64,000 nt of DNA. Origin: Dictyostelium discoideum. Taxonomy: Eukaryota. The notes under the pieces are model-generated. The model did no database searches. It was given only the letters and a program-made list of their open reading frames with translations, and was not told where the DNA came from. This document shows positions 17,617-21,261 of this stretch, one piece after another. The stretch lies in assembly GCA_000004695.1 (NCBI GenBank), contig CM000152.2, forward strand, positions 2,432,001 to 2,496,000. The letters are read 5' to 3'. The first letter of the stretch is position 1. Each line of letters starts with the position of its first letter. The position numbers and the translations under genes were made by a program.

Positions 17617-18296
17617 CTTTTTTATTTATTTGATTTAATTTATTTCGAAATAAATAAAAAAAAAAAATAAAAAAAAAAAAAGAAAATTTTATTACAAAAA
17701 AAAAAAAAAAAAAAACTAGACGAAATGAAAAAAAATAAAAAATAAAAAAAATAAAAATAAAAAAAAATAAAAATGAAAAAAATCAATAGTTTTTTTTTTA
17801 TGAGAAATTAAACAAAAATATAAATAAAAAAAAGGTGGGATGGTAATGATTTATTAAAAATGATATTAAATAATTTAAATTCTATTAAAATAAAAATTGT
17901 TGTTATTTGATTTTTTTTTCTTTTTTTTTTTTTTTTTTGGAAATCCCTTAATAATTTATTTATTAAAAATTAATTGATAAAATAAATAAGAAAAAAGCTA
18001 AAAATGTCAATTTAAAATTATAAAGTATCATTATAAATAAATACAATCTTAAAAATTCAAACAAAATAATGAATCATTTATAATTGTTTTAAAGTTTTTT
18101 TTTTGTTTTTTTTGTTGTTGTTTTTGTTTGTAGTAGGAATGGTTTAGTTGTTTTTTGTTTTGTTGTTGAAGCAAAAAAACTCGAGTTGGAACTTCAAAGA
18201 ATTGAAAAAATGATTTAAAAATTTTTGTTTCACCAAGATTTTAAAAACTTTTAAAATCGGCGCCAAAAATGAATAAAAAAATATTTTTTTCAACAA

Positions 18297-18368
18297 GTTT
18301 CGATAGCTCAGTGGAAGAGCAAGCGACTGCAAATCGTTAGGTCGCCAGTTCAATCCTGGTTCGGAACT
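18297..18368 (+). tRNA. tRNA-Cys (anticodon GCA)
   Basis: Acceptor GTTTCGA/TCGGAAC (one U-G pair). D stem GCTC/GAGC. Anticodon stem AGCGA/TCGTT with loop CTGCAAA. T arm GCCAG-TTCAATC-CTGGT. Followed by ttcttttttg, a Pol III terminator. Confidence 0.8.
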
Positions 18369-18412
18369 TTCTTTTTTGTATCCCAATTTTCCGAACTTCG
18401 TAAATTTTTTAA

Positions 18413-20695
18413 TGTAAACCAGGCCCAGATGGAATTCCAAACTTATTCTACATAACACACAAAGAAAAACTAGCTCCAATACTGGCCTCAGCATTCAACG
18501 ACACTCTAAGAAATCCTCATCTAATTAGCAAAAATTACAAAGAAGGCCTCATTATCACGATACCTAAAAAGGGAGACCCCGAACTAATCAAAAACAGAAG
18601 ACCAATTACACTGGCTAACTGTATATATAAAATCCACTCAAAACTAATAAACAATAGAATAATCCCAATACTAACGAAAGTGATCAACCACAATCAAAAA
18701 GGTTTCGTACCAGGCAGATTCATTCTAGATAATATCATATCAATGAACGAATTAATCAACTATTGTAATGATAAAAGAATTAACGGAATAATTACACTAT
18801 ATGATTTCGAAAAAGCCTTTGACTCGATCTCACACGGTTCAATACTCAGATCACTACAACACATCAACATTCCAACCAATATAATCAACCTGATAATGAA
18901 TCTACTCACCAAATCTGAAGCAAGAATTGAAATTAATGGTAGAACTACTATACCCTTTGAGATCAAAAGAGGAGTTAAACAAGGAGATCCACTATCACCC
19001 ACCCTGTTCGTCCTTGTAATAGAGGCTTTAGCTAGAAAAATTTTACAAGATGACCGAATTACTGGCCTTCCTCTAAACAACAGCAACCACAGAGAGAAAT
19101 TCCAAAGCTTTGCAGACGACTCGGCTTCAATGGTCCCAGACTCTCAACAACTTGAATTAGTACTACAACACTTCAATTCATTTTGCAAAGCCACTTCCTC
19201 AAAACTAAACATCGACAAATCTTCATCAATTCTTATAGGCAACCCAGACAATACCAACCAAAGAATTCCAATATCTACAAATCCAGAAAGATACTTGGGA
19301 TACTTCTTCACAGGCAAAGGGATAACAAGAAAAATGCCAGAAATATTAAACACAATAAGATCATCCTTAGTACTATGGAAAACCACTGACTCAACAATCA
19401 AAACCAAAACCAACATCCTCAAAGCATTCGCACTCTCTAAATTAACCTACTATTCATATGTAGAGAACTTTAAGGAAGAGGAATTAAACCAAATCAATAA
19501 ATTAGTCGAATGGTTTTTATCGGCACCAAACAACAAAAATGCTAGTGGATTTCAAGTTATTAATTTAATGAGAACCAAAAGAGCAAGATACCCACTAAAA
19601 GTAGGAGGCTGGAACATTTGGAATATAGAATTGAGACAACTGGCGCAGAAACTTTGGATCATAAACCAGTTCATCCTAGCACTAGAAACCAAACAAACAA
19701 ACTCATCTCATCACAAAAGCTGGGAATATCAGATCCAAAAAAACAAATTCACATCCAGATACCTAAAAGAAAACTTAGACGAATGGAACAAAATAAGAAT
19801 AAAAAAAGCAATCTTCAACAATAATCTCACATCCATAAAAAACGAAAATGGACAACCACTTTCACTGGCAGAATGGTATACCACAATTCAAGACCAAAAT
19901 CCAACCATCCCTAAAACGGAATTCCAATCATCTCTAAACTTAAGAGGCTACAGCTATAATCAACTCTTCAACAACATACTGAAGATAAAAGACCCTAAAA
20001 CAAGAGACACAATGTTTAGATTCCATGCCAGATGCCTTCCAATAAACTACCTTCACAACAAACAATGCCCACTCTGCAAAGAAGATATGAGCAAAGACCC
20101 ATACGGTCACCTGTTCTTCTCATGCAAGAAAACAAAACAATTCATAAAAATAAATAAACTCAAAAATTTCATCTATATTACCACAGGCAAAGGTAAAAAC
20201 TGGCACCATACAAGAATTAGGCAAAATAACAATTTCATTAATAGAATAACTCCAAAATTATCACCGACAGCCAAAAAAGATCAAGAAGTGAATGCAGATT
20301 ACGCCAACCACAGATTCCACAAAGAATACTTTGAATGGAACTATAAAGCAATAGACTATGATCTAACCAGATCATTCGCATATAGAAACCTAATGGCCCT
20401 TATCCTCCACAACATTTGGATTTGGATTTGCAATCAAATATACAGTGAAGATCCTTTAACAAATGAATCACTATCATACAGCTCCCTTCTAAAGAAATGG
20501 CACAAATTGGCCACTCTAGAATACATCAAAAAAGCAAAAGATCTGAAAAACTTATCAGCAAAAGACCATAATAACTTCAAAGATCCTAAGATCCTTCTCA
20601 CTTCAACGATCAAGCTAAGAAAAACAACAGCTAATTACTATTGTATTCCAGAATCATCTCTCCCAAATATTATATCTTTTGATCAATTCATATGA
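18413..20695 (+). CDS. ORF2 fragment of the retrotransposon: reverse transcriptase domain (PGPDGI, RPITLANCIYKI, YDFEKAFDSISH, KQGDPLSP, SFADDS) plus C-terminal Cys/His zinc knuckle (CPLCKEDMSKDPYGHLFFSCKK)
   Basis: Open frame traced codon by codon from 18413. The ORF track starts at GTG 18680. Conserved non-LTR RT motifs 0-5 are present. Confidence 0.8.
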   Translation, partial: CKPGPDGIPNLFYITHKEKLAPILASAFNDTLRNPHLISKNYKEGLIITIPKKGDPELIKNRRPITLANCIYKIHSKLINNRIIPILTKVINHNQKGFVPGRFILDNIISMNELINYCNDKRINGIITLYDFEKAFDSISHGSILRSLQHINIPTNIINLIMNLLTKSEARIEINGRTTIPFEIKRGVKQGDPLSPTLFVLVIEALARKILQDDRITGLPLNNSNHREKFQSFADDSASMVPDSQQLELVLQHFNSFCKATSSKLNIDKSSSILIGNPDNTNQRIPISTNPERYLGYFFTGKGITRKMPEILNTIRSSLVLWKTTDSTIKTKTNILKAFALSKLTYYSYVENFKEEELNQINKLVEWFLSAPNNKNASGFQVINLMRTKRARYPLKVGGWNIWNIELRQLAQKLWIINQFILALETKQTNSSHHKSWEYQIQKNKFTSRYLKENLDEWNKIRIKKAIFNNNLTSIKNENGQPLSLAEWYTTIQDQNPTIPKTEFQSSLNLRGYSYNQLFNNILKIKDPKTRDTMFRFHARCLPINYLHNKQCPLCKEDMSKDPYGHLFFSCKKTKQFIKINKLKNFIYITTGKGKNWHHTRIRQNNNFINRITPKLSPTAKKDQEVNADYANHRFHKEYFEWNYKAIDYDLTRSFAYRNLMALILHNIWIWICNQIYSEDPLTNESLSYSSLLKKWHKLATLEYIKKAKDLKNLSAKDHNNFKDPKILLTSTIKLRKTTANYYCIPESSLPNIISFDQFI

Positions 20696-20792
20696 TTAAA
20701 ATAACCCTTCAGCTTAAATGATAAGCCTTTAAATAAATATTAAATAAAACTCGTATTAACACAGATGGACATATATCAATCTTGTTAATCCA

Positions 20793-20826
<34 letters not shown>
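18413..20826 (+). mobile_element. 5'-truncated non-LTR (LINE-type) retrotransposon copy with a 3' poly(A) (29 A at 20798-20826), located 45 bp downstream of tRNA-Cys in the same orientation; TRE3-like
   Basis: The element is less AT-rich than its flanks. The RT frame begins abruptly at 18413 (PGPDGIPNLFY...) with no endonuclease domain or ORF1. It ends with a CCHC-like motif, a ~130-nt 3' UTR and an A tract. D. discoideum TRE3 elements are known to sit downstream of tRNA genes. Confidence 0.75.
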
Positions 20827-20828
<2 letters not shown>

Positions 20829-21261
20829 AATAAAGGAACACACAATTAATATTATATGAATGCTGTAAAGAGTGAATCAAAACTAACTTTATTTTTTTCA
20901 TTTTTTTCAGTTTTTATAATTTTCGAGTTTTCATTATTTTCGGCCGAGGAGTTTCGAACGAAAACTCTAAAACATATAAAAACTAAATAAATTAATTATT
21001 ATTTTAATTATTATTGTTTAATTCATTACAATTTTTTTTTAATAAAATATTTATTTGTCAATGGAGATCTTTACTTTTTTAGGAAAACATACAAACAATA
21101 ATAGATTTTTTAATATATTTTTCAATGCATTCACCCAAATTATATTACTTTTTTTAATAAAAATATATTTTTAATTACATAATCAATGATATTTAGTTTT
21201 GTTTTTACTTTAATATTATTTATTTATTTATTTATTTGATTATTTATTATTTAATTATTAA

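Follow-up and report, generated by a model that had tools for sequence, protein, structure and literature searches.

TRE3-A (Tdd-3) is a non-LTR retrotransposon of the L1 clade that resides in Dictyostelium discoideum. TRE3 elements are transcribed in the same direction as the tRNA gene that they target and lie in general 40-150 bp downstream of it (PMC5911963), and their 5' end is therefore always tRNA-proximal. A survey of TRE3-A listed 67 copies, 13 of them full-length with intact ORFs and the remaining 54 not, and found every copy with a measured distance (60/60) to lie on the 3' side of a tRNA gene, 14-228 bp away from it (PMC5006619 Table 1). The published consensus lengths are 5229 bp for TRE3-A and 5279 bp for TRE3-B (PMC5006619), the latter sharing the architecture and the target preference of TRE3-A. 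TRE5-A and TRE5-B belong to a sister subfamily that lies about 50 bp upstream of tRNA genes in the opposite orientation, with the 5' end also facing the tRNA. Experimental de novo integrations of TRE5-A include 5'-truncated ones, in which the truncated end points towards the tRNA, often together with small target-site deletions (PMC3159450). In humans, target-primed reverse transcription of L1 likewise gives mostly 5'-truncated copies with a poly(A) tail, although L1 does not target tRNA genes.

The window analysed here, a stretch of 64,000 nucleotides of D. discoideum DNA, carries a TRE3-type element directly downstream of a tRNA-Cys gene (Table 1). We consider it very likely (probability about 0.9) that this is a 5'-truncated TRE3-A copy in the obligatory orientation, which target-primed reverse transcription placed about 50 bp past tRNA-Cys. 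The locus is thus an ordinary, already known case of TRE3-A behaviour, in which B-box-guided oriented insertion, 5' truncation and presence/absence between lineages are displayed in textbook form, and its importance beyond annotation is small.

Table 1. Features of the tRNA-Cys locus (positions are those of the window).
Feature	Position	Strand	Basis or remark
GT-rich stretch, specific to the window's haplotype	18066-18200		absent from L007, L008 and L009
tRNA-Cys(GCA) gene, targeting landmark	18297-18368	+	Rfam RF00005, 61.4 bits; ARAGORN 18296-18369
Internal B box of tRNA-Cys, gtcgccagttcaatcc	18341-18356		consensus regex match
Spacer between tRNA-Cys and element, 50 nt	18369-18418	+	sequence
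5'-truncated element body, assigned to TRE3-A	18419-20797	+	blastn, BLASTP, Pfam RVT_1
Poly(A) tail of exactly 29 A (A29), tRNA-distal end	20798-20826	+	sequence; same element position as the poly(A) of other copies
203-bp segment, AX4-like haplotype only	20827-21029		absent in the empty alleles L007, L008, L009 and L004; present in the window and L003 only
Imperfect hairpin, 76 nt	20909-20984		GC-rich core 20921-20967
aatttttttttaat, imperfect direct repeat of aattttttaat (18403-18413)	21030-21043		candidate low-complexity duplication

The identity of the element is well defined by its alignments. Two full-length copies from another D. discoideum locus, L001, match it at 99.5% identity over 2405 nt with no gaps (blastn), a match that given its length and identity is not due to chance. 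On a full-length copy of 5221 bp the element body corresponds to approximately positions 2843-5221, and homology to other copies begins sharply, exactly at 18419, with ccaggcccagatgg (blastn). The remnant of ORF2 extends from there to 20695, with its stop codon at 20693-20695, and 756 of 758 residues are identical to residues 302-1059 of the protein P0001 (BLASTP). A PGPDG motif stands right at the 5' end of the fragment, followed by the reverse transcriptase domain at about 18560-19303 (Pfam RVT_1, E=7e-34, residues 50-297) and by a CCHC zinc knuckle (CPLC...H...C) at 20066-20125. A first-pass annotation of the window had described an open frame running from 18413, 45 bp after the tRNA, to 20695; the frame is indeed open over that interval, but the two codons with which it opens (tgt aaa, 18413-18418) belong to the flank, and the gap is 50 nt, counted to the element's start. 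The A29 tail was likewise correctly described, while the 3' untranslated region that precedes it measures 102 nt (20696-20797), the reported length of about 130 nt being that of the untranslated region plus the tail. The sharp compositional switch noted at the borders is reflected in a GC content of 0.30-0.41 in the element vs 0.11-0.20 in the flanks.

The same annotation had called the element a 5'-truncated TRE-type retrotransposon placed just beyond tRNA-Cys, which holds and can be narrowed to what is most probably TRE3-A (Tdd-3), rather than TRE3-B, C or D. This assignment is based on the full-length relative, which fits the published consensus length, the ORF layout and the abundance of TRE3-A. 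In particular, the L001 relative that is 99.5% identical measures 5221 bp, or 5232 bp counting a 5' A-run, and encodes an ORF1 of 416 aa followed by an ORF2 frame in which Exo_endo_phos precedes RVT_1, the Exo_endo_phos match being weak (E=0.0013; 18.9 bits, under the curated cut-off of 24.5) and covering profile positions 3-225 of 225. In parallel, the protein cluster of the element is the most populous one, with 79 members. The window copy shares with TRE3-A the ORF2 reverse transcriptase and CCHC motif, the poly(A) tail, the downstream position, the orientation and a B box upstream, whereas it lacks the 5' 2.84 kb, and with them the APE domain, ORF1 and the 5' untranslated region, and shows no clear target-site duplication; most TRE3-A copies also lack some 5' sequence. 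Its ORF is 45% identical at the amino acid level to the P0009 cluster, which includes the GenBank entry AAD43057 'pol' and probably represents TRE3-B, and 35-36% identical to the TRE5 families P0026 and P0031. The gene DDB_G0285835 on chromosome 4 was considered as a candidate for the element's gene and was rejected, as its protein shows three residue differences and the window, judged from the genes around it, lies beside DDB_G0279693.

Both tRNA-Cys and the element are on the plus strand, the 5' end of the element faces the tRNA, and the gap between them falls inside the published windows for TRE3-A and for TRE3 as a whole. In the first-pass annotation it had been viewed as anomalous that the truncated end, and not the poly(A) end, should abut the tRNA. 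This paradox is a misreading of how TRE elements insert, and it is dispelled by the orientation rule, by the published counts and by four further truncated TRE3-A copies with the same layout. One of these, in L002, is a copy of 877 bp that starts 124 nt past a tRNA-Ala and is bordered by a 12-bp duplication (tattcatttcca); the other three, in L010, stand in tandem past a tRNA-Arg, the first at 88 nt, and are joined by microhomology junctions. Since each insertion has a single target point and truncation removes element and not flank, the spacing is set by target choice whatever the extent of truncation. The use of the locus is thus corrective, in that TRE3 and TRE5 can be expected to show a truncated 5' end beside the tRNA, and such an end is no sign of unusual integration.

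To account for the spacing, a special step of second-strand synthesis or 5' joining with its anchor at the tRNA had been suggested, by which the truncated end would be fixed independently of the poly(A) junction. Apart from the spacing itself nothing speaks for such a step, which we regard as extremely improbable. The two junctions of target-primed reverse transcription differ in target position by the length of the duplication alone, so that the distance is the same for both and an anchor is needless; the orientation rule (PMC5911963) and the four other truncated copies are fully explained in its absence; and the pattern that it would need, a fixed 5' distance with varying 3' junctions among truncated copies, is not seen. 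No special second-strand mechanism is required, as the spacing follows from target-primed reverse transcription at one target point.

The distance from the tRNA can be read with respect to the B box, whose consensus is GTCnnnnGTTCRAnYC (PMC3159450). A regex search with this consensus matches the internal box of tRNA-Cys alone, and the spacer holds no canonical external B box. From the end of the internal box at 18356 to the 5' junction of the element there are 62 nt, and the same search gives 46 nt for L010 and 84 nt for L002 as the distance between the 5' junction and the nearest B box upstream. The proximity of the element to the end of tRNA-Cys can thus be ascribed to the lack of an external B box in this gene, a point of interest for the specialist, as the element lies at B-box distance counted from the internal box. 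The insertion distance was probably set by the Pol III/TFIIIC complex on the B box. Within the spacer, a T6 run at 18372-18377 is likely to be the Pol III terminator, the motif attttccgaacttcgta at 18386-18402 recurs with 100% conservation in L007, L008 and L009 amid diverged neighbouring sequence, and the last 16 nt (18403-18418) read aattttttaatgtaaa.

Comparison with other genomes indicates that the element is a lineage-specific and recent insertion. Indeed, tRNA-Cys is kept in synteny in seven other assemblies, and six genomes (two further D. discoideum assemblies and those of D. cf. discoideum, D. citrinum, D. dimigraforme and D. firmibasis) all retain tRNA-Cys with no copy of the element in the corresponding intergenic region. 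It is present, at 99.93% identity, in a second AX4-like assembly. In the alleles that lack the insertion the neighbouring genes are only about 93-94% identical to the window, and with this divergence of about 6% even in the closest of them the pre-insertion sequence is not recoverable base by base; in the AT-rich intergenic DNA past 18402, the placements of the empty alleles by MAFFT and by short-word BLAST conflict. As for a source copy, no fetched full-length copy combines the two diagnostic residues, the L of FILDN and the N of LTNES, without private changes, and L010, which shares the N of LTNES, has 3' flanks unrelated to those of the window.

The junctions also bear on when the 5' part was lost. 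Target-site duplications had been suggested as a point to look for at the ends of the element, and none that convinces is found: the sequences around 18418/18419 and 20826/20827 share only TAAA (4 bp), longer matches being all low-complexity T or A runs, and two other TRE3-A copies show target-site duplications of 10-12 bp. This lack of a clear duplication would suit an alternative already named in the first-pass annotation, that a full-length TRE3-A was inserted first and that its 5' 2.84 kb, maybe with some flank, were deleted later to give the junction 18418/18419; TRE arrays do rearrange, as illustrated by the tandem copies of L010 with their microhomology junctions. We hold this course of events to be improbable, as elements of this family are as a rule truncated at the 5' end when they integrate, 54/67 copies being not full-length with intact ORFs (PMC5006619), and truncation has been documented de novo for TRE5-A (PMC3159450). 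Moreover, the spacer keeps its conserved motif up to 18402, and the junction tgtaaa|taaataa is similar to an uninterrupted tataaataa in the D. cf. discoideum allele, so that apparently no flank was lost; a deletion with its endpoint exactly on the border between element and flank would be an unlikely coincidence. Truncation thus probably took place during integration.

By target-primed reverse transcription the locus very probably arose as follows. A target about 50 bp past tRNA-Cys, and 62 nt past its internal B box, would have been chosen with the element oriented as the tRNA, and reverse transcription would have started at the nick, on the side away from the tRNA, from the poly(A) end. It would then have halted, or the cDNA would have been joined early, about 2.84 kb short of the 5' end of the RNA and just upstream of the reverse transcriptase domain. 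With both junctions at one target position, the truncated 5' end would meet the flank on the side of the tRNA, at a distance that target recognition determines.

Upstream of tRNA-Cys, the GT-rich stretch and the motif atcggcgcc (18256-18264, 32 nt upstream of the tRNA gene) are present as the first-pass annotation described them, whereas the proposal that they are the remnant of a TRE5-type insertion about 48 bp upstream of the tRNA is not supported. A TRE5 element was taken to lie in the opposite orientation, with its nearer end 37-90 bp upstream of the tRNA. The GT-rich block stops near 18200, outside this range, with about 95 bp between it and tRNA-Cys. Its comparison with the TRE5 elements of L002 (P0026 family) and L010 (P0031 family, with the 3' end cut by the locus edge), TRE5-C being left out, gave T-run matches only, and blastx found no match among about 190 reverse transcriptase proteins. 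In addition, the D. cf. discoideum allele, which has no GT-rich stretch, retains tcggcgcc, and atcggcgcc is therefore native flank.

On the other side of the element, the 203-bp segment that follows the poly(A) tail is possibly unrelated to TRE3-A or possibly co-inserted with it. It has no match in L001, L002 or L010, in about 190 reverse transcriptase proteins (blastx) or in Rfam. Neither this segment nor the GT-rich block has a second copy in the window, the 10 loci, Rfam (E<=1), the set of about 190 reverse transcriptase proteins, or the metagenome and prokaryotic collections. For human L1, 3' transduction is established, and a comparable, speculative reading for the window copy is that one event of target-primed reverse transcription brought in TRE3-A together with about 203 bp of the 3' flank of its source, including the 76-nt hairpin, and produced a duplication of 11-14 bp (aattttttaat / aatttttttttaat). 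We judge this unlikely. In its favour, no empty allele has either the segment or the element and two AX4-like assemblies have both, the best direct repeat near the junctions would bracket them together, and the segment contains an AATAAA (20986-20991) some 40 nt short of its end. Against this, the segment has no second poly(A) at its 3' end, and with empty alleles diverged by about 6% it may be plain haplotype-specific intergenic DNA; moreover, none of the six other TRE3-A 3' ends read (two in L001, one in L002 and three in L010) provides a source. As for the repeat, its two copies hold the longest exact matches between the 5' and 3' flanks, but it is low-complexity, its copies have T runs of unequal length and are followed by different bases, and its significance in DNA of about 85% A+T is doubtful. 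If true, such a transduction would be the first documented for a Dictyostelium tRNA-targeted retrotransposon. It would start from a read-through transcript, and it is a variant of TRE3-A integration by target-primed reverse transcription and no true alternative to it.

Within this segment the GC-rich palindrome reported beyond the poly(A) is real, its core being part of the hairpin. As a candidate external B box it was dismissed for want of fit to the B-box consensus, and as a tRNA-like element for want of an Rfam match. The hairpin has a predicted RNA folding energy of -18.3 kcal/mol (z = -3.4), a stability reached by 0/200 shuffled sequences.

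In this Dictyostelium discoideum DNA, two minus-strand genes, an EFL1-like GTPase gene with its start codon at 17616 and an importin-like gene identical to DDB_G0279693 with its stop at 21262, enclose tRNA-Cys(GCA). Next to the tRNA gene lies an ORF2 remnant reading frame that carries a reverse transcriptase domain (RVT_1, E=7e-34), bears a CCHC knuckle at its C-terminal end and terminates at a stop codon at 20693-20695. GC content is 0.30-0.41 within the element versus 0.11-0.20 in its flanks. A protein search led to P0001 (1059 aa), whose cluster comprises 79 Dictyostelium proteins of near-identical sequence; the frame shares 756 of 758 aligned residues with P0001, from its residue 302. 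The locus encoding P0001 (L001) contains two full-length elements in tandem, each with an ORF1 of 416 aa and a long ORF2 frame in which a weak Exo_endo_phos match precedes RVT_1. The window copy is 99.5% identical to both over 2405 nt, ungapped; homology starts exactly at 18419 (ccaggcccagatgg), the preceding six bases, tgtaaa, being unmatched. Without poly(A), the second of the L001 copies is 5221 bp long, or 5232 bp counting its 5' A-run, and the published consensus lengths are 5229 bp for TRE3-A, 5279 bp for TRE3-B and 4734 bp for TRE3-C (PMC5006619). A second family (P0009), at 45% identity, includes the GenBank 'pol' AAD43057 and is evidently another TRE3 subfamily. As judged from length and abundance, not from library comparison, the element is a TRE3-A (Tdd-3), which lacks about 2.84 kb of its 5' end (5' UTR, ORF1, APE domain and linker) and begins just N-terminal to the RT domain. 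The first-pass annotation had correctly identified a 5'-truncated TRE3-type element next to tRNA-Cys, and its description holds to within a few bases.

The tandem pair in L001 (about 1-9310, GCA_054883475.1) has a period of 5293 bp; a 10-bp duplication, ataatgcata, brackets the downstream copy, an 11-nt A-run stands ahead of that copy's 5' end, and no tRNA gene was found upstream of the pair within the fetched upstream sequence.

Features around tRNA-Cys in the window
Feature	Position	Strand	Remarks
GT-rich block	~18066-18200		haplotype-specific; ends ~95 bp upstream of tRNA-Cys
tRNA-Cys(GCA)	18297-18368	+	
Internal B box of tRNA-Cys	18341-18356		gtcgccagttcaatcc; matches consensus GTCnnnnGTTCRAnYC
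Motif attttccgaacttcgta	18386-18402		17 nt, 18-34 nt past tRNA-Cys; 100% conserved
Poly(A) of element	20798-20826		exactly 29 A, after a 3' UTR of 102 nt
203-bp segment	20827-21029		only in the window and L003 (AX4-like)

The truncated end faces the tRNA gene, and it had been argued that, with the poly(A) junction primary and the 5' end variable, this end should lose its tRNA spacing; no such anomaly was found. In target-primed reverse transcription the junctions are set apart in the target by the duplication length alone, truncation in LINE integration trims the element and leaves the flank untouched, and orientation alone decides which end of the element is tRNA-proximal. TRE3 elements are oriented as the tRNA gene (PMC5911963) and therefore always turn their 5' end toward it. 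Since only 13 of 67 TRE3-A copies are full-length with intact ORFs, and the 60 copies with measured distance lie 14-228 bp 3' of a tRNA gene (PMC5006619 Table 1), most TRE3-A copies are truncated at the canonical distance. De novo integrations of the sister element TRE5-A that were 5'-truncated toward the tRNA have been recovered experimentally, often accompanied by small target-site deletions (PMC3159450). The window copy is thus an ordinary element of a type that is already well characterised, and its position and orientation are canonical.

Comparable copies occur at two other loci. In L002, a truncated TRE3-A of 877 bp lies 124 nt past tRNA-Ala in the orientation of the tRNA, flanked by a 12-bp duplication (tattcatttcca), and a TRE5-type element stands head-to-head on the opposite side of the same gene. 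In L010, a tandem row of three truncated copies, 308, 3308 and 1109 bp long, stands downstream of tRNA-Arg and shares the orientation of that gene; the first copy is 88 nt away from the tRNA and 46 nt past an external B box of canonical sequence. The TRE5-type element upstream belongs to another family than that in L002. The arrangement of TRE5-type head-to-head upstream and truncated TRE3-A downstream is thus seen at both Arg-ACG (L010 5514-10416) and Ala-AGC (L002 2055-8460). A microhomology, 'agct', is common to the second/third TRE3-A junction in L010 and the flank of the second copy, which suggests that insertions took place one after another at almost the same nucleotide. Past the TRE5-type A-run of L002 (8460-9210), a block of short tandem motifs with ttaaaggtaatttt and cacctttaaaat variants encloses a sequence that resembles a tRNA, contains a B-box-like gggattcgatccc and was not called by ARAGORN.

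The spacer between tRNA-Cys and the TRE3-A reading frame is 50 nt. A search with the published B-box consensus, GTCnnnnGTTCRAnYC (PMC3159450), detected no external B box at tRNA-Cys, from which we infer that so short a spacing agrees with targeting from the internal box. Measured from the closest B box upstream, the 5' junction lies at 62 nt in the window; the corresponding values are 46 nt for L010 and 84 nt for L002.

The motif attttccgaacttcgta occupies the site where the external B box stands at other tRNA genes. Three alleles with a divergence of about 6% keep it unchanged amid intergenic DNA that is otherwise scrambled. Part of it is a near-palindrome, cgaacttcg, with GTTCG in the complement, and 'cgaacttcgta' also occurs in D. 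dimigraforme immediately ahead of a B-box-like sequence. Elsewhere in the window, tRNA-Asn(GTT) (11914-11986) is followed at a distance of about 33 nt by a perfect external B box (gttcgatcc, 12019-12027), yet neither side of that gene holds a TRE element, whereas tRNA-Cys is occupied though it lacks an external box.

The syntenic region was obtained from eight assemblies by way of the importin-like neighbour. Another AX4-like assembly of D. discoideum (L003) shares the insertion and is 99.93% identical over 7.5 kb. tRNA-Cys lies between the same two genes in L004-L009, and the element is absent from D. discoideum L007 and L008, D. cf. discoideum L009, D. citrinum L004, D. dimigraforme L005 and D. 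firmibasis L006. This distribution marks the insertion as lineage-specific; its 0.5% divergence from related copies indicates that it is young. In the flanking genes, however, the 'empty' D. discoideum alleles share no more than about 93-94% identity with the window, and past attttccgaacttcgta the divergence of the AT-rich intergenic DNA prevents a base-level reconstruction of the pre-insertion sequence. In D. firmibasis (L006 ~11815-12010, minus strand), a canonical external B box (gggttcgattccc) accompanies the orthologous tRNA-Cys, and past this box lie two short poly(A)-ended fragments in the orientation of the tRNA. The second fragment shows a weak likeness to the final ~35 nt of TRE3-A (...aatcccaataatatt-A(n)), which suggests independent TRE3-type insertions at the same tRNA gene in another species.

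No convincing target-site duplication was found directly at the element junctions, the best candidate being TAAA. The junction 'tgtaaa|taaataa' is similar to the contiguous 'tataaataa' of L009, a likeness that is weak evidence against any loss of flank. The element together with the next 203 bp is enclosed by an imperfect repeat of low complexity, aattttttaat (18403) and aatttttttttaat (21030). This segment is missing from all empty alleles and had no match in the TRE3-A/TRE5 loci, about 190 RT proteins, Rfam, or metagenome and prokaryotic genome collections. Possible readings are haplotype-specific intergenic DNA and the remnant of an older insertion; a third, 3' flank transduced together with the element, lacks a second poly(A) and is improbable. 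The palindrome noted earlier downstream of the element is real and belongs to a longer imperfect hairpin within this segment (20909-20984; dG -18.3 kcal/mol, z = -3.4). A reading of the palindrome as an external B box was rejected, as the consensus is not matched.

On the other side of tRNA-Cys, a TRE5 remnant had been proposed from 'atcggcgcc' and a GT-rich block, a proposal that our comparisons did not support. In L009, an allele devoid of the block, the 'atcggcgcc' at 18256-18264 is kept as 'tcggcgcc' equally far from the tRNA, and is therefore native 5' flank. Compared with two TRE5 families, the block showed T-run similarity only and no coding remnant; it may be a remnant of an unsampled element. 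An ~80-nt T-run directly after 'cccgggaacca' (8600-8690) is low-complexity and no transposon fragment; its BLAST match to the L002 TRE5 A-run is spurious. Further upstream of tRNA-Cys, a ~50-bp segment (18012-18065) is inverted between the AX4-like haplotype and D. discoideum GCA_054859355.1 (L007 ~11810-11865), with near-perfect alignment on the opposite strand and colinearity on both sides.
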